64,000 nucleotides of DNA, from assembly GCA_964406795.1 (NCBI GenBank), contig CAYOTA010000003.1, positions 49,252-113,251 of the forward strand. The letters are read 5' to 3'. The position numbers were made by a program, and so were the translations under genes. The stretch is from an uncultured Gammaproteobacteria bacterium (GTDB lineage Bacteria; Patescibacteriota; Microgenomatia; Levybacterales; GWA1-39-11). Within the stretch, counting starts at the first letter, position 1. Every line of letters starts with the position of its first letter. Shown here one piece after another: positions 5,219 to 60,324 of the stretch. The notes under the pieces are model-generated. The model did not search any database and had not been told where the DNA came from. It saw only the letters and a list, made by a program, of their open reading frames with translations.

Positions 5219-6100
5219 GTGGGAGACTCGTCATTATTTCAGGATTTAAAAACCAAATTTTCTCAAAAGCACGAAGACATAAAATCAAGTGTTCTAGAAA
5301 AGCATAAAAATTCCCTAGCCCTTATAACAAATTATCCAGCTCAGATTTCAGCTGGGGTTATGGGAGCGGCCCTCTTGGTAACCAATTCGCTTCCAGTTTT
5401 ACCCACAAACTCATTAGTTGACAATAAATCAATGGTAGTTGAGTCATCCGTTTTAAATCCTACAGGATTTCTTATATCTAATTTACAGAGGGTGTTGCCT
5501 CACGAAGTTCGCCCTTTATCAACTGATGAAGAAAAAAATGTTGCAGAAATTTTGTCCAGAGATTTTAAAATGCCGGTTTCAGCGGAATTAGAAGGAATAA
5601 AACTTAATAGATCATATGGTTTAATTGGTGCAGAGCAGCATCTAGCGCGTTACCCTGGGGACAACATGGCAACACATTTTGATAACACTGAGGATTCTCA
5701 AAAGTACTACTCATCTGGAATGGCTCCTGGATTGGGGGCGTGGGGATATTTTGCGCCAAGTAGTTATGACTTAACAAAGGAAGATATTGACCGCGAAAAG
5801 TATTATATTGCAACGCAGACATTTTTGGCTTCCGGATTTGATGAAAACGTATACAAATATATAACTTTTTTTAAGCACAGAAAAATGTTAGTTGTTAATC
5901 CTCAAAATGGGAAAGCTATGGTAGTAGTTATTGGAGACGCAGGTCCAGGGCGCTCTACGGGAAAACATTTGGGTGGTTCTCCTGAAGTTATGAAATATTT
6001 AGAACGTGTAGATGGCGCGCAAAAGGGTCCAGTGTTATACTTTTTTGTGGATGACCCGGAAGACACAATTCCTTTAGGACCTATAGAAATACAAAGATAA
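5219..6100 (+). CDS. RlpA-like double-psi beta-barrel domain protein (putative secreted cell-wall protein)
   Basis: C-terminal VVNPQNGKAMVVVIGDAGPGRSTGKHLGGSPEVM resembles RlpA/expansin DPBB signature; start codon uncertain (GTG). Confidence 0.4.
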   Translation: MGDSSLFQDLKTKFSQKHEDIKSSVLEKHKNSLALITNYPAQISAGVMGAALLVTNSLPVLPTNSLVDNKSMVVESSVLNPTGFLISNLQRVLPHEVRPLSTDEEKNVAEILSRDFKMPVSAELEGIKLNRSYGLIGAEQHLARYPGDNMATHFDNTEDSQKYYSSGMAPGLGAWGYFAPSSYDLTKEDIDREKYYIATQTFLASGFDENVYKYITFFKHRKMLVVNPQNGKAMVVVIGDAGPGRSTGKHLGGSPEVMKYLERVDGAQKGPVLYFFVDDPEDTIPLGPIEIQR

Positions 6101-9573: not shown

Positions 9574-9915
9574 TTTTTCGTGGTCGGAAAGATACTTGTG
9601 TTCAATTTTTTTAAGCTTGTCTCCAACCGCACGGTCTATATCCACTCCTGCTGCTACTGCCAACTGGATGGTGGTAATTATAACATCTGCAAACTCTTCA
9701 TACATGTGAGTTTTATTAAACTTATCTAATTTTGATTTTCTCTGTAATTTTAGTATTGCCAGGATATCGTTGCAAAGTTCTCCTACTTCTTCGTTCAGTT
9801 TTACCGTTTTAGTTAATACCTCTTTTTCAAGAGGGGAATACAGCTTGTAGTGGGGCTTTGTTTTATCATTTAGTTCTTTTACTCGTTCCTGAAGACTTTT
9901 GAGATTCATGTGCAT
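9562..9915 (-). CDS. MazG-like nucleotide pyrophosphohydrolase
   Basis: EExGEL and EFADV motifs of MazG/NTP-PPase fold; 117 aa. Confidence 0.65.
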   Translation of the reverse strand: MHMNLKSLQERVKELNDKTKPHYKLYSPLEKEVLTKTVKLNEEVGELCNDILAILKLQRKSKLDKFNKTHMYEEFADVIITTIQLAVAAGVDIDRAVGDKLKKIEHKYLSDHEKSPK

Positions 9916-49386: not shown

Positions 49387-49665
49387 ATGGAATTACTCTT
49401 ATGGACATTTTTTGGAGTAATGGGCGGATGGATAGCTTCTGTCATCTATGAAAGTAAGGATACATATGGCTTCCAAAAAGATGTGCTGTTGGGGATTATT
49501 GGTGCAGTTGCCGCAGGTTTAGTCATTAATTCCTTAGGCTATAGAGGCATTACAAGTTATAATGCGTTTTCTGTACTTACTGCAAGTATTTTTATAATCT
49601 CTCTTATTGGAGCAAAAAGATTATTTGAAATACAGAATAAAGGAAAAGAGTTGTGGCAGAGTTAA
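49387..49665 (+). CDS. GlsB/YeaQ/YmgE family stress-response membrane protein
   Basis: 92 aa, GGWIASVI...GIIGAVAAGLV glycine-zipper TM helices. Confidence 0.65.
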   Translation: MELLLWTFFGVMGGWIASVIYESKDTYGFQKDVLLGIIGAVAAGLVINSLGYRGITSYNAFSVLTASIFIISLIGAKRLFEIQNKGKELWQS

Positions 49666-49788
49666 AATTAAAAGGTGGTGATAAAAATGGAGCATAAAAA
49701 AGGATATTTAAAATGGTTTGAGGATATACAGTCGGAGACTGATGAAAATTCAGGATACGAATATTCAGCCATCGAAAATAAATAAGTA

Positions 49789-50859
49789 TGTCTAGGTTGG
49801 GATACATGCAGAACGGTTGAGAGTTAATTGTCACACAGATATACTGACGTAACCATGCGTCACTACAACATTGTTCCTTGGAACCAACTGAAAGATTCAT
49901 TCATATCAACAGATGGTTTGAAAAGACTTTCTTGGATGGACTGGTACTATGCTCACGGCAAGAATGCAGAAGCAACCTGCAGGCACCTTGGTTTGTCAAG
50001 ACCGTGTTCTACCGGTGGCTCAATGGATTTGACAAGAAATCTTCTAAGCCTTGAATTTGACACAAAAACCAAAAGACCTACAAGCGTCAGAGCTCCTCAG
50101 ATTGACACTGCAATATCTCAAAGAATCTGTGACATTCGAAAAGAAGATCTTGAGAAATCCAAGTACGAAATACAGGAAGAGTTAAAACGAGAAGGAATAC
50201 ATATTGGCCAATCTGCTATTCAACGTGCTATTAATTCCCACAAAGAACTACAAAATCTCCAGCACAGACGGAAGATGAGGAGGTACAGAAACTACAAAAT
50301 TACCAGAATCAAGGCTGCAGTTGAGCTCAGAGAGAAAAGCTTGGGTTCGTTAGTCCAGGTTGACACCAAGTACTTCTACGTCTTGAATCACAAGTTCTAC
50401 ATCTTCTCAGCTATTGATTGCAAATCTCGATATGGGTTTCTCTACTGTTACCGATCTATCTTATCTCACTGCGCCAAAGACTTTATTAAAAGAGTCAGAG
50501 AGTACTTCCCCTTTGAAATCTTGGCTATTAACACTGACAATGGCTCAGAATATCTCCTTGAATTTCACCGTGAGATTGAATCTTGGGGTATCCCTCACTA
50601 TTTCACAAGTCCTCACTCCCCAAAACAAAACGGGAGAGTGGAAAGACTGCACCAGACAGCAGAGTATGAATACTTTAACTACCAAGAAGATCTCCTCGAC
50701 AATCTTTCAGCGATTAACCAACGCTGCACTGCTTTTAACACCACATACAACACAAAACGATTCCACCGTTCCCTTTCCTACAAAACACCTCTAGAAGTTG
50801 TGCTAAAATGCAAACAACAGAAAGGAGAACAACCGTTCTTTATCTAACCAACCAGGATA
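49789..50859 (+). mobile_element. IS481-family insertion sequence (about 1.07 kb) with about 31-bp imperfect terminal inverted repeats
   Basis: IRL TGTCTAGGTTGG...AGAACGGTTG at 49789-49819, IRR CAACCGTTCT...CCAACCAGGATA at 50830-50859; encloses DDE transposase; no clear target-site duplication seen. Confidence 0.6.
49828..50847 (+). CDS. IS481-family DDE transposase (HTH + rve integrase core)
   Basis: N-terminal HTH (AEATCRHLGLSR), DDE core with ...TDNGSEY... and SPKQNGRVERLHQT; TTG track start, ATG at about 49855. Confidence 0.75.
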   Translation: MSHRYTDVTMRHYNIVPWNQLKDSFISTDGLKRLSWMDWYYAHGKNAEATCRHLGLSRPCSTGGSMDLTRNLLSLEFDTKTKRPTSVRAPQIDTAISQRICDIRKEDLEKSKYEIQEELKREGIHIGQSAIQRAINSHKELQNLQHRRKMRRYRNYKITRIKAAVELREKSLGSLVQVDTKYFYVLNHKFYIFSAIDCKSRYGFLYCYRSILSHCAKDFIKRVREYFPFEILAINTDNGSEYLLEFHREIESWGIPHYFTSPHSPKQNGRVERLHQTAEYEYFNYQEDLLDNLSAINQRCTAFNTTYNTKRFHRSLSYKTPLEVVLKCKQQKGEQPFFI

Positions 50860-50885
50860 AAACCTTGACTTTGAAATAAAGTAAA

Positions 50886-50896
50886 TACACAATGTA
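50886..50896. promoter_or_regulatory. TACA-N3-TGTA dyad (BlaI/MecI/CopY-type operator) immediately upstream of blaI-like gene
   Basis: TACACAATGTA 8 nt upstream of ATG at 50904. Confidence 0.45.
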
Positions 50897-50903
50897 TATT
50901 TAG

Positions 50904-51293
50904 ATGAGAACTAAAAAAAATGTAGGTAAAGTGCTTGGAGAATTAGAGACCGATGTAATGGAAATTATTTGGAAAGCTGAAAATCCAGTCTCGGTTTTAG
51001 ATGTAGTGAAAGTTCTTGGTAAGAAACGAAAGAGTGCCTACACTACGGTCATGACAATTATGTGGAGGCTTGTTTATAAGGGTATATTAATACGTAAACT
51101 TCATGGGACAAGTTATCTTTATCAACCGAAAGTGAATCGGGAAAAATTTGTAGCAAGCTCAGTCCATGCTATCTTTACATCTGCTGTGTCAACTCTTGGA
51201 CAAGAAGTAGTTTTGCATTTTGCAAAAGAGATCCAGAAAATGAGTCCGGAAAAACGAAAAGATTTGCTTACTATGCTTAATACAGATAAATGA
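50904..51293 (+). CDS. blaI: BlaI/MecI/CopY family transcriptional repressor
   Basis: Winged-helix penicillinase-repressor pattern (METDVMEIIWK... TVMTIMWRLVYKG). Confidence 0.8.
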   Translation: MRTKKNVGKVLGELETDVMEIIWKAENPVSVLDVVKVLGKKRKSAYTTVMTIMWRLVYKGILIRKLHGTSYLYQPKVNREKFVASSVHAIFTSAVSTLGQEVVLHFAKEIQKMSPEKRKDLLTMLNTDK

Positions 51294-51296
51294 TGT

Positions 51297-52346
51297 ATGA
51301 GAATATATAAATTTAATGGAAGCTTTTTATCATTACTTCTTGTAACAGCAACTACAGCTTCACTTGTTATATTATTATTGGTAAAGTTTTTTCCATTCGT
51401 TTCAGTAAAAACATTGTATTTCTGCCAGCAATTTATCTCCAATACTCTTTATCAAATACCTCAGCTAGTTCAAAACACCTTTCTTATCGCAATAATCATT
51501 GCGCTTACTCTGGGAAGCTTGTCATTTCTTATTCAGATGGTAAAAACCAGACAATTAGTAAAATCACTCCTGAAAAATCGAGTTGCTCTTTCGCAAAGAG
51601 TGAAGAATTTGACGATTTCTCTCGGGCTTGAAGGTAAGGTTGATGTCCTTGAGGATGTTAATTGTTTTTCTTTATGTGTAGGAATTATTCATCCGCGCAT
51701 TTTAATTACAAACGCTCTTGTCACATCATTAACTGACAAAGAGCTTGAGTCAGTTTTTCTCCATGAAAAAGCGCATATCCGCAATTTTGATCCTTTTAAA
51801 ATACTATTTGGGAAAACGATAAGTTGGTTATTTTTCTTTTTACCAATATTCTCTGAAATCAATAAGAATATGCAAGCAACGAATGAAATTTTAGCTGATC
51901 AATTTGTAACGTCTTTTCAACAGGATGACATGTACTTACGCAGTGCGTTGAAGAAAATTATCATGTCTCCGCAAAAGAGCTTTTCGATAGTGCCAGCTAT
52001 AGCAAATCCGGACTATTTAGAAATACGTATTTACCGACTTATTAATCCGACAGTAAGCCAAAAATTTCATATATCATGGATAAGTATTGGTACAAGTATA
52101 CTATTTTTCTTATTTATGATGATTCTTCTGCAGGTCCCCGTGAGCGCTTTTTATATGGAAAGCTCAAAAGAAGAATCATACATTGCATGTTCTTCTGATA
52201 AATCTTGTAGCCAGGAGTGTCAGCTTACAGTTCAAGCATCAAGCGTCTCAACCCCAGAGCAATTATTTTCTCCTATTCAACAAGAAAGGAAAAATTCTAG
52301 CTCTCCTCTTCAATCTTCAAAATCTCAATCATTGAGATATAAATAA
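51297..52346 (+). CDS. blaR1: BlaR1/MecR1-like M56 metalloprotease signal transducer lacking penicillin-binding sensor; Cys/Ser-rich C-terminal tail
   Basis: Four TM helices, HEKAHI zinc motif, C-terminal ...ACSSDKSCSQECQ... instead of a PBP domain. Confidence 0.7.
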   Translation: MRIYKFNGSFLSLLLVTATTASLVILLLVKFFPFVSVKTLYFCQQFISNTLYQIPQLVQNTFLIAIIIALTLGSLSFLIQMVKTRQLVKSLLKNRVALSQRVKNLTISLGLEGKVDVLEDVNCFSLCVGIIHPRILITNALVTSLTDKELESVFLHEKAHIRNFDPFKILFGKTISWLFFFLPIFSEINKNMQATNEILADQFVTSFQQDDMYLRSALKKIIMSPQKSFSIVPAIANPDYLEIRIYRLINPTVSQKFHISWISIGTSILFFLFMMILLQVPVSAFYMESSKEESYIACSSDKSCSQECQLTVQASSVSTPEQLFSPIQQERKNSSSPLQSSKSQSLRYK

Positions 52347-52355
52347 AACCACTCC

Positions 52356-52393
52356 TTGACAAAACAGGGACTTTATTACTACAATTTGTAGTA
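52356..52393 (+). promoter_or_regulatory. Promoter (TTGACA -35) overlapped by 17-bp palindrome TACTACAA-T-TTGTAGTA (TACA-N3-TGTA operator)
   Basis: -35 at 52356-61; perfect 8-bp inverted arms at 52377-52393 covering the -10 region; 13 nt before ORF 52407 and RBS GGAGGTG. Confidence 0.5.
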
Positions 52394-52424
52394 GAAAATA
52401 TTTTACATGAAAGGAGGTGTCAAT

Positions 52425-52709
52425 ATGGCAGAACAAAAAGAAGCAACAACAGCGGCAATTCATACAATTCCAAAACAACGGGTAGATAACACAATTACCT
52501 TTCGTGTTCCAAGGCCAAATATGCAAGTCGCAGTATTAGGAATTGTTGCCTTTATCACTTTATTTCAAACAGTGCAACTATTAAGAATTAGCGGCAGTAC
52601 AGAAACTGCATCGGTGAGAGCAGTAGCAGCAACTACTAGTACAGGGGCGAGCGGCACAGGAAGTGGATCAGACGCTAGCACACCGCAATCAATGGTAGGC
52701 GGTTGCTAA
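52425..52709 (+). CDS. Small single-TM protein with Ala/Thr/Ser/Gly-rich region and C-terminal GGC
   Basis: ATG at 52425 preceded by AAGGAGGTG; TM VAVLGIVAFITLF; ends ...QSMVGGC; first gene after operator. Confidence 0.4.
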   Translation: MAEQKEATTAAIHTIPKQRVDNTITFRVPRPNMQVAVLGIVAFITLFQTVQLLRISGSTETASVRAVAATTSTGASGTGSGSDASTPQSMVGGC

Positions 52710-52736
52710 AATTGCTATTTTACTGTCTTAGAATTT

Positions 52737-53978
52737 ATGAGAAAGAAAACAACAGCACCTGTTGGTGATGTAATAATTGATGAAGCTGAAAAGAAGCAAA
52801 ATATTTCTATTGAGAAGTCCAGAGTAGTTAATTTTCCTTGGCCAAAGATATTTCTAGGAGTAGCGCTTATCGCAACAGTTGCGGGTGCACTTTTTGCCAC
52901 GAAGACACTCTCCGGAATTGATAAGAATATTGCAAATGCAAAAGAGGATGCACGGGCGGCAGATATAAAACTGATAAAAATTACAACTCCTAGTTGTGTT
53001 GACTGTTTTAACATTGATACTGCTGTCTCAACACTTAAAAAACAAAATGTATCTGTGGGGGATGAAAAAGCAGTAAACTCAGATTCTAAAGAAGGAAAAA
53101 TGCTCATTAAGCAGTTTGGGATTAAGCGACTGCCGACATATGTTGTAACCGGCGAGATATCAAAAAAGACACTAGAAAGTTTTGTTAAAAATAATGGTGA
53201 GATAAAAAGTAGAACATTTGTATTTAATAAAGTTACACCTGTTTTTGTTGATGCAACGACAAAGAAAGAAATGGGAAAAGTAACGGCAACAATTCTTATT
53301 GATCCAACATGTATCCAATGTGTTGATCCAAAACTAACAGTTGAGGCATTTAAAAAAGCAGGAGTAAAAATTATAGAGGAAAAAGAAGTTATATGGGATT
53401 CTGCAGAAGGACAAGCGCTTATTAGTCAGTATAATGTTACCCAACTTCCTACATTTCTTCTTTCAGAAGATATTGATCTTTACGATGATGTGAAAACAAA
53501 CTGGACACGAATTGGGACAGTTGAAACCGACAAAACTTACGTTGCTCGTAACTTACTGCTGCCCTACCGAGATCTCAAAAGAGGACAAATAGTTGGTCTT
53601 GTCGATCTTATCTACTTAACTGATACAACGTGTAGCGAATGTTATGATTCACAACAAGTGCAGCGGCCTATCTTAACGCAAAGTTTTGGTATAGGAATTT
53701 CTTCCGAGCGCACTGTTGACGTAAACTCTTCTGTTGGACAAGAATTAGTTAATCAATATAAGATTGTAAAAGTTCCTACAGTTCTATTATCATCTGATGC
53801 TGGTCAATATCCGGGGTTAAAAAACGTTTGGTCTAGTGTGGGAACGATTGAATCTGATGGTTGGTATGTCTTTCGAGAAATGGCTCAGATTGGCAATGTT
53901 ATCTACAAAGATTTAGCAAGCAATCAAGTAATTCGCCCAGCACAGCAAGCAGTAACTGGAAATCCAGCAAATCAATAA
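52737..53978 (+). CDS. Membrane-anchored protein with three tandem thioredoxin-fold domains (CVDC, CIQC, CSEC)
   Basis: N-terminal TM helix then three repeats each with CxxC and a cis-Pro-like (L/V)PT segment. Confidence 0.55.
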   Translation: MRKKTTAPVGDVIIDEAEKKQNISIEKSRVVNFPWPKIFLGVALIATVAGALFATKTLSGIDKNIANAKEDARAADIKLIKITTPSCVDCFNIDTAVSTLKKQNVSVGDEKAVNSDSKEGKMLIKQFGIKRLPTYVVTGEISKKTLESFVKNNGEIKSRTFVFNKVTPVFVDATTKKEMGKVTATILIDPTCIQCVDPKLTVEAFKKAGVKIIEEKEVIWDSAEGQALISQYNVTQLPTFLLSEDIDLYDDVKTNWTRIGTVETDKTYVARNLLLPYRDLKRGQIVGLVDLIYLTDTTCSECYDSQQVQRPILTQSFGIGISSERTVDVNSSVGQELVNQYKIVKVPTVLLSSDAGQYPGLKNVWSSVGTIESDGWYVFREMAQIGNVIYKDLASNQVIRPAQQAVTGNPANQ

Positions 53979-53979
53979 T

Positions 53980-55266
53980 ATGGAAAAACTATTTGCATCA
54001 TTTAAGATCATTTTTAAAGAACCTAGCTATATAAAAATTGCTGCATTTACGTCACTTGTTGTTACGTATATATCATATTGGTTATTTAGCCAGACCACGA
54101 CAGCTTCCTCTTTTATTAATAGTATGCAGAGTGGAGACTTTGGCAAGTATAGTTTTGCTTATGGTATTACATATATTATTACAACTATTTTTATTATCCT
54201 CTTATCAGGGGTGAGTATTGCTACGACAGTATGGTTATTTCGACATTCAAAACTGGGGTTGCAAAAAGCGGCAGGTGGGAATGTTGGTGGTCTTATTAGT
54301 GCAGCATTTGCGATGGGCTGCCCTGTTTGCGGAGGATTCTTATTATCTTTTCTTGGCATTGCAGGTGGTCTTACTATTTTCCCTTTTCAAGGTTTAGAGT
54401 TAAAACTTTTAAGCTTGGTACTTCTTGGTATATCTGCTTGGTACGGTTTATCTAAGGTCAACAAAAAAGACTGTGAAGACTGTATGGATATTCGTAACCA
54501 CACTGTATTAAAAAGTCAAGGTATCAAAATTGGAGGAAAACGACTAATTGTTTTACCTCTTGATAAAGCAATTGTGACTATTATTACGCTTTTATTTGTC
54601 ATAAATCAGCTTTTTATTAGTCAAATTGCTATGGCAATGGGGATTGCTCCACAAGGGGGATCTTTGGCAAGCCTTTTAGGAATTCGTCAGGCTAATGCGT
54701 ATGCAATAATAGCACCTAAAATCAATCCTGATGGTAAGACGACTGTTCTGGTTGAACAGCCAACAATTTCAGAGGTATTGGCAAATCCGAATACTGGAAA
54801 TGTTTTAGAGGATGCGAAAGTTGTTATGATGGCAACGGGAAAGCCATTTTATGCTCCTGAAGATATTTCTTTTGATGACCCTATTAATGCGCAAAATAAA
54901 TGGGGTGCATATGAAAGCAGTATCCAGCTATCAAGTGCATTACAAGCCAGATTTGATACTATGATTAATACAATGATGGTATGCAGTTACTGTTGTGGAT
55001 CTCCTAGCAATGTTACTCTCATTGGTAATTGTGGTTGTGCACATGCAAGGGCGGTAAGAGGATTTTATAAATATATGCTGCAAACGTATGGTGATAAATA
55101 TACAAATGAACAGTTAGTAGGAGAATCACACCGCTGGTATGGTATCTGGTATCCAAAAGGTATGCTTGAAGATTATTTACTTGCAACTGGCAAAGGAAGC
55201 GCGCTGCCTCATGAGACACATGGAGGAGCGGGGGTCGATGGTATGCATGGACTCACTACACAGTAG
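53980..55266 (+). CDS. Cys-rich polytopic membrane protein with His/Met-rich C-terminus (putative metal/redox membrane protein)
   Basis: GCPVCGG in TM region, KDCEDC, CSYCCGSPSN...GNCGC, C-terminal HETHGGAGVDGMHG. Confidence 0.4.
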   Translation: MEKLFASFKIIFKEPSYIKIAAFTSLVVTYISYWLFSQTTTASSFINSMQSGDFGKYSFAYGITYIITTIFIILLSGVSIATTVWLFRHSKLGLQKAAGGNVGGLISAAFAMGCPVCGGFLLSFLGIAGGLTIFPFQGLELKLLSLVLLGISAWYGLSKVNKKDCEDCMDIRNHTVLKSQGIKIGGKRLIVLPLDKAIVTIITLLFVINQLFISQIAMAMGIAPQGGSLASLLGIRQANAYAIIAPKINPDGKTTVLVEQPTISEVLANPNTGNVLEDAKVVMMATGKPFYAPEDISFDDPINAQNKWGAYESSIQLSSALQARFDTMINTMMVCSYCCGSPSNVTLIGNCGCAHARAVRGFYKYMLQTYGDKYTNEQLVGESHRWYGIWYPKGMLEDYLLATGKGSALPHETHGGAGVDGMHGLTTQ

Positions 55267-55274
55267 AATTATTT

Positions 55275-55688
55275 ATGAAAAAGAGTATTATTTTTTGGGT
55301 AATTATTGCACTTCTTATTCTTTTAGGAATTTTTGGTCGCGGCATTTTTAATCCGCAACCAAAAAACATACCTCAATTGGGGACTGAAACTCCTGCTCAA
55401 AATTCATCATCTTCTATGGCAGGAACTATAACGGTCAAAGGATTCAATAGTGGATTTTCTCCAAAAACTATTACAGTTAAACAGGGAGATATGGTAATGC
55501 TCAATCTCGTTAGTGATGATTCACCCCACACATTTACTATTGATGAGCTGAATATAAATCAACAGTTTACCTATGGTAAAGATGCATCTGTCATGTTTAC
55601 TGCAAGCAAGAAAGGAACATTTCAGTTTTATTGTGTTGTGCCGGGTCATAAAGAAGCAGGAATGGTCGGATCGCTAATCATTGAATAA
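55275..55688 (+). CDS. Cupredoxin-like (type-1 copper) domain protein, membrane-anchored
   Basis: SPHTF His plus FYCVVPGHKEAGM (C-x4-H-x4-M) ligand spacing as in azurin-type blue copper proteins. Confidence 0.5.
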   Translation: MKKSIIFWVIIALLILLGIFGRGIFNPQPKNIPQLGTETPAQNSSSSMAGTITVKGFNSGFSPKTITVKQGDMVMLNLVSDDSPHTFTIDELNINQQFTYGKDASVMFTASKKGTFQFYCVVPGHKEAGMVGSLIIE

Positions 55689-56133
55689 GCTTACACCAAT
55701 AATGACTGAATTCATCCGTGATATAAAAACAAGAATCGGTTTTACGATTAGCTCTTTTTTGTCTGCGTTGGGAGCTGGAGGGGGTGCGACTTCGGCTGTC
55801 TGTCAGACAACATGCTCTACCGGAAGCGCATTGCCATTTTTTTTAGGCTTAACTCTTTCAGCAACACCATTTGCCTTTATAGAGGATTATCAAATCCCGC
55901 TATGGTGGCTCTCTTTTGCAGTGTTTGGAATATTGACATTTCTTTTTATGAAAAAAATACTTTATTCAAAGACTGACAGGGCATTGTTGTTTCTTAACTT
56001 TGGATTTTTACTCATTGGTTTTCCTTATTTTCGTGATACACTTACTATGCTTCCTTGGATTGGATTGTTTGTTTCTATTATGGCGTTATATTTACTACTT
56101 TTAGCAAAACGTATAATTATTCAATGGACATAA
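55681..56133 (+). CDS. Small polytopic membrane protein with CxxxC (CQTTC)
   Basis: 150 aa, overlaps cupredoxin gene by 8 nt. Confidence 0.35.
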   Translation: MNKLTPIMTEFIRDIKTRIGFTISSFLSALGAGGGATSAVCQTTCSTGSALPFFLGLTLSATPFAFIEDYQIPLWWLSFAVFGILTFLFMKKILYSKTDRALLFLNFGFLLIGFPYFRDTLTMLPWIGLFVSIMALYLLLLAKRIIIQWT

Positions 56134-56134
56134 A

Positions 56135-56284
56135 ATGAAAAAAACAGAAAGTTCAGGTGTAAAAGAGGCAGGATGGGAATTTACTGTTCCAGGCTATGTT
56201 GCCAGCCCAGTTACCTGGCTGATACTTCTCCTAGCAGGAGTTGCTCTTTTACTATTATTTATTCTGATAAATAAAGTTTTATAA
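56135..56284 (+). CDS. Small C-terminally TM-anchored protein, 49 aa
   Basis: ATG 1 nt after previous stop (coupling); below ORF-track cut-off; followed by AGGAGGAG RBS of next gene. Confidence 0.3.
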   Translation: MKKTESSGVKEAGWEFTVPGYVASPVTWLILLLAGVALLLLFILINKVL

Positions 56285-56332
56285 GCTAGCAATACTTAGT
56301 CCTCACATTACGCCAGGAGGAGAAAAAATGCA

Positions 56333-57244
56333 ATGAGAACACGAGCAAAAAATATTACTGTTAAAAATAGACAAAAAATATTATTCAGTGTAGGTATTTT
56401 GCTCCTATCTTTGGCATTTATACCTTTTGTCAGGGAGTATAGAGATTTTTTCCTCTTTGCTGGTATAATTTTTCTTCTTATTGGTGTTATTCAGCTGACT
56501 TTTCATCCAAAAGTTGTTTATAGAGACTTATCGGAAACAGGTAGTGGTTTTGAGGATGCCAAGCAAACTACTCAAGAGAACCCAGTATTAAAAATGCCGT
56601 TTTCCATGAAGCAAAGCCCAATGACCTTATTCCTATTCTTTCTTATAATTGGTGGATTTATTATCAATCAAGTGTTTATAATGCGATATAATAAAATTTC
56701 TGCATCAAAAAATGTTGAGAATACTACACCTGTACAGAGCGCAGTTAAAGTTCCGGTAGTTAGTGCCGCTGATGAGATTATTAAAACAGAATTACAACAA
56801 CAAGGAAAAGAAGTACCCGTTTTAGGTACTGCACATGATCATGCTGATTTAAATGTGTACATTAATGGACAAAGGCAGATACTTGCAAAACCTGAAAATT
56901 ATATGAAGAGCTCATTTATGCATATTGATAATAATCCAAATTTGGACGATGCCAATAGTGTTTTACACATGCATGCAAAGAGCGTACTATTATGGACATT
57001 CTTTACAAGTCTTGGCATGAACCTAACACAAGATAGCTTGACTCTAACCGATGGACAAATATTAAAAAACGAAAATGGAAATACATTAAAATTTTACCTT
57101 AATGGACAAAAAGTAGATGAGTTAGGCGATTATTCGTTCCAGCCACTTGATAAAATGCTCATAAGTTATGGCCCGGAAAACGATCCTAATGTGCAAGAGC
57201 AATTGAGAGTAATGACGAATTTTGCGAAAGATCACCAAAAATGA
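56333..57244 (+). CDS. Membrane-anchored extracytoplasmic protein with paired His motifs (HDH...HMH), paralog A
   Basis: Two N-terminal TM helices; TAHDHADLNVYINGQRQ ... HMHAK ... FYLNGQK pattern shared with next gene. Confidence 0.4.
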   Translation: MRTRAKNITVKNRQKILFSVGILLLSLAFIPFVREYRDFFLFAGIIFLLIGVIQLTFHPKVVYRDLSETGSGFEDAKQTTQENPVLKMPFSMKQSPMTLFLFFLIIGGFIINQVFIMRYNKISASKNVENTTPVQSAVKVPVVSAADEIIKTELQQQGKEVPVLGTAHDHADLNVYINGQRQILAKPENYMKSSFMHIDNNPNLDDANSVLHMHAKSVLLWTFFTSLGMNLTQDSLTLTDGQILKNENGNTLKFYLNGQKVDELGDYSFQPLDKMLISYGPENDPNVQEQLRVMTNFAKDHQK

Positions 57245-57792
57245 GTAAACACACCAAATATAATACGTTTATAGAGCAGCCACAACAAAAAAGGAGCTTT
57301 TTAAAAAATCCACTAGCGTTCCTAGAAGGATTGAATACGGAAGCAAAGGTTATTGGTGGGATTGGGTTATTAACCCTTGTAATTTTAGTGGGTGGCATTA
57401 CTCTTCTGTCATTACAGCAGGCAAAAGAGGCTTCTATTCCAGAAGGAGATGTGGTATCTCGCAGTGGTATACACTGGCATCCACAGGTTTCAATCTCTAT
57501 TAAAGGGAAGCAGCAACAGATTCCAGCTAACTTAGGTATTGGCGGTGTTCACCAACCAGTTCATACACATGATACGAGTGGTCAGCTCCATGTGGAAATA
57601 GGCGGTGTCGTTACAAGAGATAATATAAAACTTAATAATTTTTTCAAAATTTGGGGCAAGAAGCTTAGTTCTGAATGTGTTGTTGATGAATGTGGAGGCA
57701 AAACAATAATGCTTGTTAATGGGAAAGAAAATAAGGAATTTGGCAATTATTTGATGAAAGATAAAGATAATATAGAAATACGATATGAATAG
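57241..57792 (+). CDS. Membrane-anchored extracytoplasmic protein with paired His motifs (HWH...HTH), paralog B
   Basis: IHWHPQVSISIKGKQQQ ... HTHDTSGQLH ... IMLVNGKEN; 4-nt overlap with paralog A. Confidence 0.4.
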   Translation: MSKHTKYNTFIEQPQQKRSFLKNPLAFLEGLNTEAKVIGGIGLLTLVILVGGITLLSLQQAKEASIPEGDVVSRSGIHWHPQVSISIKGKQQQIPANLGIGGVHQPVHTHDTSGQLHVEIGGVVTRDNIKLNNFFKIWGKKLSSECVVDECGGKTIMLVNGKENKEFGNYLMKDKDNIEIRYE

Positions 57793-57807
57793 TATCATTC
57801 AAGCTTA

Positions 57808-58485
57808 ATGGATGCTGTTTTACTATCTTTTGCCTTTCTTGCAGGATTGCAAGCTTTTTTTGCACCTTGCAGTATCGCTTTAATTCCTGCCTATGTTGGG
57901 TATTATGTTAGCGAAGAAAATCAGCCAGTAGGTCACGCGCAGCAGTTATTTTACGGTTTGAAAGCAGGCAGTATTGCAAGCTTGGGTTTAATTAGTATTT
58001 ATGCTATTTTTGGCGTTATTCTTGCACTTTTAGGAAGGCTTATTGCTCCTTTTATGTCGTGGATTGAGCTTTCAACCGGAGGATTGTTACTATTTTTAGG
58101 GGTTGCGACGCTTTTGGGATATGAATTTGCGCTGCGGCCTCCTGTTGCTATCAACAGTCGTGCGAAAGGAGCAGGACGCTTCTATTTTTTTGGTATCGCT
58201 TATGCGCTTGGAGCAATCGGTTGTACATTACCTATATTTCTTTTAGTCATCTTTCAAGCGCTTGCGCAAAAGGGCATGCTGGGAGGATTTGCAAATTTTC
58301 TTGCATATAGTGTAGCGATGGTGAGTCTCATGATTCTTTTTTCACTTATTGCCGCAGTTTCAAAAACTGCTATTTCACGCTTTTTAAAACGATACATGCT
58401 AGTAATTCAAAAAAGTGCAGGGATACTCGTGCTTCTTGCTGGTGTATACATGGTATATCTTGCATTAAAAGTAATCACAATATGA
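57808..58485 (+). CDS. ccdA: Cytochrome c biogenesis/thiol-disulfide transporter CcdA (DsbD family)
   Basis: Six TM helices with the two conserved Cys (FAPCSIAL and AIGCTLPIF). Confidence 0.8.
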   Translation: MDAVLLSFAFLAGLQAFFAPCSIALIPAYVGYYVSEENQPVGHAQQLFYGLKAGSIASLGLISIYAIFGVILALLGRLIAPFMSWIELSTGGLLLFLGVATLLGYEFALRPPVAINSRAKGAGRFYFFGIAYALGAIGCTLPIFLLVIFQALAQKGMLGGFANFLAYSVAMVSLMILFSLIAAVSKTAISRFLKRYMLVIQKSAGILVLLAGVYMVYLALKVITI

Positions 58486-59009
58486 AACTTCCAAAAATAG
58501 AATGGACAAATAGTCCATTATTTAAAAAAACGCCATTGCTTCTTGTTATTGGCGTTGTTTTGTTTGTTGGGTTTAATGTCTATCTTTACCTCAAAATTCA
58601 AAAAGCATCAAGTGATATAGTGCAAATGCAAGCTACTGTCACAAAACCAGCACGGAAAGTTTCTACGGAATTTTCAAAAAAGATTCAGCTTGGTGAGAAA
58701 CAATGTCCGTACCAAAAAGCAGGTAATCCCAATGCACCTTTAAAATTCAAACTATTTGAGTCAGAAACATGCCCCTATTGTATCGCGCAAAATAAAGTGA
58801 TGGATGAAATCTTACCGGAATATGGTGATCTCATGTACATTGAGTGGTATGAAGTAATCGAATGCGAAAAAGAATCTGAGCAGTATAAAATCTCCGGTGT
58901 GCCTACTTTTGTCTTTACTGCTCAGGGAATTGAAAAACCACCTGCATATGGATTTTTAGATAAGCAGCAAATAGTTGATTATATTTGTAGGGTTTCAGGA
59001 GAATGCTAG
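58482..59009 (+). CDS. Membrane-anchored thioredoxin-like protein (CPYC)
   Basis: N-terminal TM helix, ETCPYCIAQ active site and downstream VPTFVF cis-Pro region. Confidence 0.6.
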   Translation: MKLPKIEWTNSPLFKKTPLLLVIGVVLFVGFNVYLYLKIQKASSDIVQMQATVTKPARKVSTEFSKKIQLGEKQCPYQKAGNPNAPLKFKLFESETCPYCIAQNKVMDEILPEYGDLMYIEWYEVIECEKESEQYKISGVPTFVFTAQGIEKPPAYGFLDKQQIVDYICRVSGEC

Positions 59010-59303
59010 ACATTTTGTATTTTAGATAGTTCTACGAAGTGTTGTAGCTTCAATTACATGCACGAAAAACCAAATTAAAAAAACGTCATCAAAAGCCTTA
59101 TCACACTTGATCTTATACCGAAAATGATTGTAATATGCTATCTCAGCATTTTTAATAGGGTCGCTATATACTAAAGTGTAATATCTTGAAAAAGTGGAGG
59201 CAACACAGTTGTCACCAAACTGTTAAGCTGACTGCTACCGCTGGAATAACAACCCGCAAGCTTTATTAAACCATGTGAGCACAAATTACGGTATAATATA
59301 GGT

Positions 59304-59951
59304 ATGAATACCTCGGTAAAAAATAAGGTAGAGGAGTTTTTTTCTCAATTCACCCTACAAGAATACATAAAAAACCAAATTATCATCTCTCCTGAGGAAA
59401 ATATACAATCTATTTATTTTCTTAAAAAAGGTTTGGTGCGGATGTATATTATTTCAGAAGATGGTGTAGAGGCAACCATTCATGTCTTTCGCCAAGGTTC
59501 TTTTTTCCCAATTATGCTTTCGTTAAGGAGTAGACCAAATAAATACTATTTTGAGGCAATGAAAGAAGTCGAGACAGTGAAGGCTCCGGCAGACAAGGTG
59601 ATCGCTTTTATTAAAACTGACCCGGAAGTATTATTTGATTTAACAACACGCTTCGCAGATGCAATTAATGGGCTAATGAATCGGATAGAACAATTAGTCT
59701 CACAAGGCGCGTATTCCAAAATTGCGTCACTGCTTTTATACTACGCTGATACATTCGGTCAAAAAAAAGGAAATATGTATTATTTTGAACTTCCATTTAG
59801 TCATGACCAGATTGGTACATGGGTGGGAACAACCCGCGAAACTGTCAGCAGACAGATGGAAATACTAGAGAAAAAAAGGATCATTACTCATAAAAATCAC
59901 AAAATTATTATAAACAATCTTGTAAGACTTAGGGATGAGGTCACAAAATAA
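59304..59951 (+). CDS. Crp/Fnr family transcriptional regulator
   Basis: cNMP-binding-like beta-roll plus C-terminal HTH (TRETVSRQMEILEKKRII). Confidence 0.75.
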   Translation: MNTSVKNKVEEFFSQFTLQEYIKNQIIISPEENIQSIYFLKKGLVRMYIISEDGVEATIHVFRQGSFFPIMLSLRSRPNKYYFEAMKEVETVKAPADKVIAFIKTDPEVLFDLTTRFADAINGLMNRIEQLVSQGAYSKIASLLLYYADTFGQKKGNMYYFELPFSHDQIGTWVGTTRETVSRQMEILEKKRIITHKNHKIIINNLVRLRDEVTK

Positions 59952-59961
59952 ACTATCGTTA

Positions 59962-60324
59962 TTAGTCTTTACCTGCCGTTTTGGTAATACATTCCTTTGT
60001 AACAAGTATGCTCTTTTCAGGACTATTTTTGTTTGGTAGGCCTGTAGGTAATATATAACAATTCCATTTTCCCATACCCACACTTAACTCCAAGTATACG
60101 CCGTTTTTAAAAGACTGTTCATTTTTAACTTCATATTTGCGATACTTGCCTGTTATTACATCTTTTGTAAAACTAAATTCACTCTTGGTGATAAAAGTAA
60201 TTTTCCCCTGTCCGTCAGTGAGAAAAAAACGATACACTTTTTCTGATTCTTGCTCATCTCTCAACATGAGAAGTACAGGAGCGCTCGTTAACCAGTGTGT
60301 TCCTCTACTCATAACTGTAATCAT
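59962..60324 (-). CDS. Hypothetical protein
   Basis: 120-aa ORF, no domain recognised. Confidence 0.3.
   Translation of the reverse strand: MITVMSRGTHWLTSAPVLLMLRDEQESEKVYRFFLTDGQGKITFITKSEFSFTKDVITGKYRKYEVKNEQSFKNGVYLELSVGMGKWNCYILPTGLPNKNSPEKSILVTKECITKTAGKD

Follow-up and report, generated by a model that had tools for sequence, protein, structure and literature searches.

How is a conserved operon switched on in a bacterium of the Candidate Phyla Radiation (CPR, Patescibacteria), a group in which, to our knowledge, transcriptional regulation is almost unstudied? The question is raised by a stretch of 64,000 nucleotides (nt) from contig CAYOTA010000003.1 of assembly GCA_964406795.1, here called the window, in which a gene for a BlaI-family repressor and a gene for an M56 membrane protease are followed by a 17-bp palindrome and a ten-gene operon. 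Comparison with related loci makes it very probable that the adjacent repressor of 129 amino acids (aa) binds a predicted operator at positions 52377-52393, occludes the -10 element of a promoter and controls the operon downstream. The locus would thereby provide a concrete regulatory link in the CPR, with one repressor, one 17-bp operator fused to a -10 element and one conserved operon.

A predicted operator fused to a -10 element

The argument involves the following five features of the window.

52377 to 52393, no strand: main predicted operator, TACTACAATTTGTAGTA, a perfect match to the family motif TACTAC-N5-GTAGTA
52356 to 52361, forward strand: -35 hexamer TTGACA of the operon promoter, an 11/12 promoter match together with its -10
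52380 to 52385, forward strand: -10 hexamer TACAAT, equal to motif positions 4-9 and inside the palindrome
50904 to 51293, forward strand: BlaI/MecI/CopY-family repressor, 129 aa, no cysteine (PF03965, E = 7.5e-26)
51297 to 52346, forward strand: M56 (BlaR1-type) membrane zinc protease, 349 aa (PF05569, E = 8.8e-15)

A preliminary description of this DNA had reported a perfect 17-bp palindrome with 8-bp arms lying over a -10 element downstream of TTGACA. Reading the sequence confirms its coordinates and arms (TACTACAATTTGTAGTA is a perfect 8-1-8 palindrome with a central T) as well as its position, with TACAAT inside the palindrome and a spacer of 18 nt between the two hexamers. This promoter is the top sigma-70-type match within the 10.6 kb scanned (49600-60200). 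Palindromy by itself is weak evidence, because perfect 8-1-8 palindromes number five in the window, where simulated sequences have about 2.2 (first-order Markov; maximum 6). One of the five, ATCTCAATCATTGAGAT (52322-52338), occupies the last M56 codons, 38 nt before the operator, and is only partly conserved in a related locus, L001.

The dyad TACA-N3-TGTA, which the palindrome contains, is found six times in the window against 1.17 expected, a count reached in none of 100 shuffles. Four of these copies (9839, 10319, 46036 and 53624) were rejected as operators because they lie within open reading frames (ORFs) and have at least three mismatches to the 17-mer; they are also devoid of the outer TAC/GTA triplets. 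The copies at 9839 and 10319 are 480 bp apart, both inside ORFs, and have similar flanks (GAATACA...TGTAGTG and TGATACA...TGTAGTG) with three mismatches each; they are probably due to chance. Sites with two mismatches to the 17-mer (7277, 33754, 59030) were likewise discarded, since their number is at chance level (4 found against 1.66 expected). The only site in the window with no mismatch or one mismatch is 52377-52393, and what is decisive for its significance is the comparison with related loci.

The loci examined belong to nine close homologues of the repressor and to a further 80 relatives, more distant, that came from scanning a genome collection with the recognition-helix peptide AYTT(V/I)MT as one of the patterns. 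The motif was scored over 82 loci (1.06 Mb; designated L001, L002 and so on) that had been picked solely for encoding a homologous repressor. About 60 close homologues share 47-100% identity with the repressor, including one from Candidatus Microgenomates, and the top relative among GTDB representatives is a WWE3 bacterium (58% identity). Perfect TACTAC-N5-GTAGTA sites number 55 in the 82 loci where 0.056 are expected, and sites with at most one mismatch number 109 where 2.1 are expected; the enrichment beside homologous repressor genes is about 1000-fold. Two positions predominate among the 109 sites: 42 (in 39 loci) precede the repressor gene by no more than 160 bp, and 38 (in 36 loci) lie 1.0-2.4 kb downstream of it, just past the M56 gene. 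Perfect matches account for 13 of the 42 upstream operators versus 29 of the 38 downstream operators.

The composition and spacing of these sites define the motif. Perfect TACTAC/GTAGTA arms are separated by N5 at 59 sites, by N4 at 5 and by N6 at 6, with 0-4 sites for the other spacings tested. Positions 1-5 and 13-17 are almost invariant, the near-invariant bases being TAC-TAC and GTA-GTA, while A occupies position 7 in 68% of sites and T occupies position 11 in 54%. Of 114 family sites, 34 have TTGAC at a distance of 14-15 nt upstream and none has it in the mirror orientation, and the -10 hexamers formed by motif positions 4-9 at TTGAC-bearing sites are TACAAT (15), TACACT (10) and TACAGT (3). 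The window site, with a gap of 15 nt between -35 and motif, follows the same plan. Perfect orthologous sites occur in L001, L002, L085, L087, L092 and many other loci, and in the close relatives L001, L002, L087 and L090 a perfect operator precedes the same first gene. The closest relatives carry, for example, TACTACAATAAGTAGTA at this place, where the inner TGTA has become AGTA and the outer bases are the same.

The motif is present in CPR (WWE3, Microgenomates, Daviesbacteria, Woesebacteria and others), Actinomycetes, Chloroflexi, Bacillota, Gemmatimonadota and more taxa. The comparison shows TACTAC-N5-GTAGTA as the predicted operator of a large BlaI subfamily with the helix AYTTVMT, spread over many phyla and usually flanking the repressor-protease pair. 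The helix of the window repressor, SAYTTVMTIM, fits the AYTTVMT(I/V)M subfamily, and here the downstream 17-mer is perfect while the upstream one is degenerate. Earlier, TACA/TGTA half-sites had been taken as the defining feature; this does not hold, as the inner TACA-N3-TGTA is present in only 29 of the 114 family sites, and TACTAC-N5-GTAGTA is a better search pattern than the textbook cop box TACANNTGTA. The 3-nt spacer is indeed one base longer than in the bla operators of Staphylococcus aureus and the cop box. The distinct subfamily that it was thought to indicate is real, but it is a large one covering many phyla, and its spacing has precedents in PetR and in Clostridium thermocellum BlaI_0696. 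A few lineages have N4 or N6 between the same arms at the usual positions (L082 7939 and 9387; L034; L014 9417; L059 7913, 9321 and 12378; L027; L037; L073), and operator spacing has therefore changed within the subfamily.

The two proteins encoded next to the operator fit a repressor-protease pair. PF03965 matches the repressor with 91 bits over residues 11-126 (N-terminal winged-helix Penicillinase_R domain), and its sequence matches the solved structures 2G9W, 1P6R and 1SD4, the best being BlaI of Mycobacterium tuberculosis (2G9W). Its top NCBIfam match is CopY_TcrY, but identity as CopY was rejected because the protein has no cysteine and the score (54.7 bits) is far below the cut-off (121.95). 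BlaI of S. aureus is cleaved at Asn101|Phe102. Opposite this cleavage site (LVLN|FAKN) the repressor aligns with VVLH|FAKE, the Asn being replaced by His or Tyr, and F106, aligned with the cleavage-site Phe, is invariant in 30 homologues. The M56 gene starts 3 nt after the repressor stop codon, and the HExxH motif of its product (HEKAH) and a downstream E..AD are kept in 12 orthologues. Of the 585-position blaR1 profile, the protease aligns with positions 99-339 alone, scoring 28.5 bits where the cut-off is 400, and it ends 69 residues past its last membrane helix. From this partial match and the short tail it follows that the penicillin-binding sensor domain is absent.

The operator forms part of a sigma-70-type promoter, and transcription is predicted to start some 7 nt past the -10, within the right arm of the palindrome. 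Because the operator overlaps both the -10 and this start, the geometry suggests that a bound dimer, spanning about -15 to +2, would exclude RNA polymerase and keep the ten-gene operon (52425-59009) off. Repressor control of the downstream operon, as first proposed for this DNA, is still the best reading, given a conserved operator on the -10 that is enriched about 1000-fold near homologous repressors.

Three other explanations of the site can be set against this one. The palindrome might work as an RNA hairpin that terminates or stabilises the blaI-M56 transcript, and it does lie 31 nt past the M56 stop codon, in a 71-nt region that folds with -12.5 kcal/mol (z = -3.0) into two hairpins, one of them the palindrome itself; a terminator-like stem at 52353-52370 also appears in a consensus scan. 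We nevertheless regard this as highly improbable. The palindrome is not followed by a U-tract (GAAAAUAUUUUAC), the motif is also found upstream of the repressor gene, where no transcript ends, and its spacing from the -35 is fixed and strand-specific. Furthermore, the arms are conserved as exact TACTAC/GTAGTA across CPR, Actinomycetes, Chloroflexi, Bacillota and Gemmatimonadota with no compensatory pair changes, and a protein-binding site therefore fits better than an RNA structure.

Only a small chance is given to the palindrome being the operator of another regulator, either a paralogous BlaI-family protein encoded elsewhere or the Crp/Fnr-type protein encoded at 59304-59951, with the adjacent repressor controlling something else. 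Such a possibility gains from the fact that 64 kb of the genome are in view, that a Crp/Fnr-family gene follows the operon and that L002 keeps operators without an adjacent M56 gene. Against it, the motif co-occurs with the repressor subfamily in 82 repressor-selected loci, usually flanking the repressor-protease pair, and is unlike the Crp/Fnr consensus sites (TGTGA-N6-TCACA and TTGAT-N4-ATCAA). It is also very unlikely that the locus senses beta-lactams or cell-wall damage in the manner of S. aureus BlaI/BlaR1. The protein families are the same and the cleavage-site Phe is conserved, but the sensor domain is missing from the protease and the operon has neither a beta-lactamase nor a penicillin-binding protein (PBP) gene.

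The promoter of the repressor gene

Whether the repressor also controls its own gene depends on a second, less regular site.

50883 to 50899, no strand: putative decayed autoregulatory operator AAATACACAATGTATAT, containing the dyad TACACAATGTA (50886-50896); 5/12 mismatches to the family motif
50865 to 50893, forward strand: repressor promoter (TTGACT, 17 nt, CACAAT), aligned with CTTGACTTTT...TACAAT in L001 and L087

A second TACA-N3-TGTA dyad in front of blaI had been put forward as a sign of autoregulation. The dyad TACACAATGTA is present, within the repressor promoter, and is separated from ATG 50904 by 7 nt (50897-50903), not 8. The promoter can alternatively be read as TTGAAA at 50871, 18 nt and TATATT ending at 50900. 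A match to the family motif equal to that of AAATACACAATGTATAT is expected in 70% of 60-position stretches of the window (P ~0.70). At the orthologous position, L001 and L087 carry TACTACAATGTATAGTA, L085 carries TCTTACAATGTGTAGTA, L092 TATTACAATTTGTAATG, L090 TATTACAATTTCTAATG and L089 TATTACAATGTAAAATA. Compared with L001, the window site has lost the T at position 4 and shows T in place of G15 and of A17, and it is identical in two further assemblies of the same population. The 1-nt deletion joins the old outer TAC to the next A, and it is by this fusion that TACA-N3-TGTA would have arisen at 50886-50896.

The upstream dyad thus reads as the remnant of an ancestral, already imperfect autoregulatory operator that has lost both outer triplets, and because of this loss autoregulation in this genome is probably weak or absent. 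Autoregulation through this dyad, as claimed earlier, accordingly becomes uncertain. A functioning autoregulatory operator, for which the deletion would have made a new, shifted TACA-N3-TGTA core, is a possibility to be taken seriously, although we lean against it. An exact TACA-N3-TGTA is expected only about 0.001 times per 60 nt and here stands in a promoter, between -35 and -10, where relatives have their autoregulatory operator; the inner TAC-N5-GTA triplets keep the family spacing, and upstream operators of the family are often imperfect, as the counts of perfect matches given above illustrate. On the other hand, five mismatches in twelve positions are at chance level, the outer triplets are gone despite being near-invariant in the family, and, relative to related loci, the dyad is displaced by 1-2 nt with respect to the -10 and the ATG.

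In the close relatives L001, L085, L087, L089, L090 and L092, 2-3 nt separate the 17-mer from the repressor ATG, which comes about 10-11 nt after the -10. No Shine-Dalgarno sequence precedes the repressor ATG in the window (50900-50906) or in the orthologous regions of these six loci. Because the ATG is so close to the -10 and a Shine-Dalgarno sequence is lacking, the blaI-M56 mRNA is probably leaderless.

The downstream operon and its likely signal

The genes that the predicted operator would control are listed below.

52425 to 52709, forward strand: first regulated gene, 94-aa single-pass membrane protein with the invariant C-terminus SMVGGC
52737 to 53978, forward strand: 413-aa protein with weak thioredoxin-like matches and three CxxC motifs (Pfam search, translation, synteny)
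53980 to 55266, forward strand: 428-aa Cys/His-rich membrane protein, organism-named members all CPR (homologue alignment)
55275 to 55688, forward strand: cupredoxin, a plastocyanin/azurin-like copper protein (PF13473, E = 8e-13; PF00127, E = 6.5e-8)
55681 to 59009, forward strand: rest of the tightly packed operon, with the same genes in the same order in L066 and L002

The palindrome had been placed 13 nt before the first ORF, which is correct for the longest-ORF start at ATG 52407 but not for the start that is probably used. ATG 52407 lies inside the ribosome-binding region, and AGGAGG (52412-52417) is followed 7 nt later by ATG 52425. Gene calling done independently on an identical contig also yields a protein of 94 aa, and the alignment with homologues begins at MAEQKE. 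ATG 52425, 31 nt past the palindrome, is thus almost certainly the true start. The 94-aa protein contains an S/T/G-rich linker, and its (Q/E)SMVGGC-stop C-terminus is invariant in 8/8 homologues examined. An ICMT/PEMT-like gene (isoprenylcysteine carboxyl methyltransferase family) lies directly upstream of its homologue in L001 (7949-8254) and L087 (4661-4966), and in view of this arrangement the terminal Cys may be modified or bind metal.

The family of the 428-aa protein shows 54-81% identity over more than 120 homologues, and its organism-named members all come from CPR/Patescibacteria. Cys pairs (CPVC in a membrane helix, CxxC, CxxCC and CGC), His355 and the C-terminal histidines are invariant in it. 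The protein has no Pfam or NCBIfam match, and a Foldseek comparison of its AlphaFold model (mean predicted local distance difference test score, pLDDT, 64) with the PDB gave nothing below E = 0.2. The remainder of the operon encodes a 150-aa membrane protein, a 49-aa membrane ORF, proteins of 303 and 183 aa, a DsbD/CcdA-like membrane protein with a weak match below the Pfam cut-off, and a thioredoxin/DsbA-like protein. The 49-aa membrane-protein ORF (56136-56285) is uncalled, accounts for an apparent gap of 200 bp in the operon and contains the perfect 8-4-8 palindrome TTATTTATTCTGATAAATAA (56255-56274).

Synteny of operon and repressor is seen in L001-L004, L020, L066, L085 and L087. Genes for DUF2933, ICMT or copper P-type ATPase are nearby in relatives, and a copper P-type ATPase gene adjoins the L002 locus. 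In L002, whose repressor is a 63%-identical relative, an 8-6-8 palindrome, ATTACAATAAACGTATTGTAAT (5396-5420), is located between the copper P-type ATPase gene and a DUF305 gene; it may serve a different metal regulator as operator, or it may be a BlaI site of variant form.

Because the co-transcribed M56 protein keeps HExxH and the repressor keeps the cleavage-site Phe, induction most likely follows the logic of BlaI/BlaR1, in which an extracytoplasmic signal would cause the M56 protease to cleave the repressor, and the repressor would leave the DNA. The likeliest signal, judged by gene content, is copper or envelope thiol-redox stress, as for the cyanobacterial pair PetR/PetP. This suggestion is based on the cupredoxin, the CxxC proteins, the DsbD-like and Cys/His-rich proteins, the conserved cysteines of the protease and the copper ATPase of relatives. 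Among the protease cysteines, one in the first extracytoplasmic loop (FCQ) is conserved; the closest clade has a C-x6-C-x3-C extracytoplasmic tail, and the tail of the window protein is Cys-rich (CSSDKSCSQEC).

The nearest analogue, judged by its published description, is the copper-responsive PetR/PetP system. In Synechocystis sp. PCC 6803, the sensor-less M56 protease PetP degrades the BlaI-family repressor PetR when copper is present, so that plastocyanin is derepressed, and the PetR site GAC-N5-GTC, extended to GACA-N3-TGTC, lies between the -35 and -10 of the plastocyanin gene (bioRxiv 10.1101/2020.07.31.226407). Both systems have a repressor gene followed by a gene for an M48/M56 protease without a beta-lactam sensor domain, 5 nt between the core triplets of an operator within the -35/-10 region, a conserved cleavage-site Phe and a cupredoxin among the regulated genes (plastocyanin in Synechocystis). 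They differ in the half-site, TAC(TAC) here and GAC there, and in the operon, which here is much larger, of the envelope thiol-redox type and found in a CPR host rather than a cyanobacterium. The candidate sensing residues are cysteines here (first loop and C-terminal tail) whereas PetP has two methionines.

Several points weigh against a copper- or thiol-responsive switch operated by this repressor. The signal is read from gene content, where the DsbD match is below cut-off, similarity to thioredoxin-like proteins is weak and no family could be assigned to five of the ten proteins (the 49-aa ORF was outside the search). PetP is proposed to use Met ligands, whereas the M56 protein of the window has Cys. 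The motif scan in the host genome covers 64 kb, L002 combines repressor and operators without an adjacent M56 gene, and all comparison loci share AYTT(V/I)MT, partly by construction, as this was a scan pattern.

A more specific proposal is offered tentatively, and we think it doubtful as it stands: the sensor-less M56 protease may sense copper or thiol-oxidising stress through its extracytoplasmic cysteines, cleave the repressor and induce an uncharacterised envelope pathway seen so far in CPR alone. The parts of this pathway would be the membrane-tethered peptide ending in SMVGGC, the thioredoxin-like protein with three CxxC motifs, the Cys/His-rich membrane protein and the cupredoxin. If true, this would be a previously undescribed system of metal/redox homeostasis in Patescibacteria under PetRP-like proteolytic control. 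The understanding of the BlaI family is unchanged by an ordinary but well-supported switch of this kind, and the more interesting question is the role of a conserved operon seen so far only in CPR bacteria.

Sensor-less BlaR proteins are the majority of their family, and the locus would be one more example for the increasingly held view that beta-lactams are not what most BlaR-like proteases sense (PMC13492132). The S. aureus systems BlaI/BlaR1 and MecI/MecR1 likewise consist of a two-gene operon (PF03965 and PF05569) with promoter dyads, a TAC/GTA half-site and the cleavage-site Phe. The bla operators of S. aureus, as read from plasmid CP126919.1, are ATTACAGTTGTAAT and ATTACAATTGTAAT, with N2 spacing, in agreement with the described operator TACA-N2-TGTA (PMC1935004), whereas the operator core here, TACA-N3-TGTA, is one base longer. 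The 250-aa penicillin-binding sensor domain of BlaR1 is absent here, and the targets in S. aureus are beta-lactamase or PBP2a.

CopY/CopR of Firmicutes belong to the same DNA-binding domain family, and there too the promoter of a copper-related operon is overlaid by a TACA/TGTA-type dyad, the cop box TACANNTGTA or, as 16 bp, RNYKACANNYGTMRNY, with a 2-nt spacer (PMC7253601). The window site, however, has a 3-nt spacer and is flanked by TAC/GTA. The window repressor is cysteine-free and has no C-terminal CxCx4CxC (or CxC), and CopY is released by direct binding of Cu(I), not by proteolysis.

BlaI of M. tuberculosis (Rv1846c, PDB 2G9W) is the closest solved structure (E = 3.2e-10) and has a near-identical helix, AYTTVM; actinomycete loci in our set carry the same 17-bp motif, and the comparison rests on these loci and the helix. 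The regulon of M. tuberculosis BlaI, studied by Sala et al. in 2009, is reportedly unrelated to the window operon. The protease partner of M. tuberculosis BlaI, BlaR, also has no sensor domain (bioRxiv 10.64898/2026.08.03.742534). In C. thermocellum, BlaI_0696 recognises inverted hexamers (GTCTAT) 5 nt apart, as supported by DNA affinity purification sequencing (DAP-seq) and electrophoretic mobility shift assay (EMSA), controls its own gene and has a regulon that is small and located beside BlaR1 genes (PMC8457756). Its 6-N5-6 architecture, shown experimentally there and inferred for PetR, is that of the window operator, but the hexamer sequence differs and the C. thermocellum sites are paired for four protomers.

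Rearrangements beside the repressor and protease genes

A mobile element lies on the other side of the repressor gene.

49800 to 50849, forward strand: single-copy insertion sequence (IS) with an rve-type transposase and imperfect terminal inverted repeats (Pfam search, copy count)

The right end of the IS is 5-15 bp upstream of the repressor -35, and the element lies outside the regulatory unit. The label of cargo, under which the preliminary description had placed the operon, is a misnomer; a reading as transposon cargo was rejected, because the IS occurs once and relatives lacking an IS beside the repressor gene have the same order of repressor gene, M56 gene and operon. An rve transposase gene (235-1140) is also found next to the repressor gene in L089, whose repressor is 81% identical.

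At the other end of the repressor-protease pair, L001 and L087 have two promoter-operator copies after the protease gene, of which the first drives DUF2933 and ICMT/PEMT-like genes and the second the 94-aa gene; L085 has the same two operators, with only a DUF2933 gene called between them. When set beside L001 6796-7995 and L087 3540-4700, the single copy in the window (52300-52450) has a left part that matches the first copy of these relatives and a right part that matches the second. Because the window promoter-operator is a chimera of the two copies, the DUF2933 and ICMT-like genes have evidently been deleted in the window by recombination between the repeated promoter-operators.

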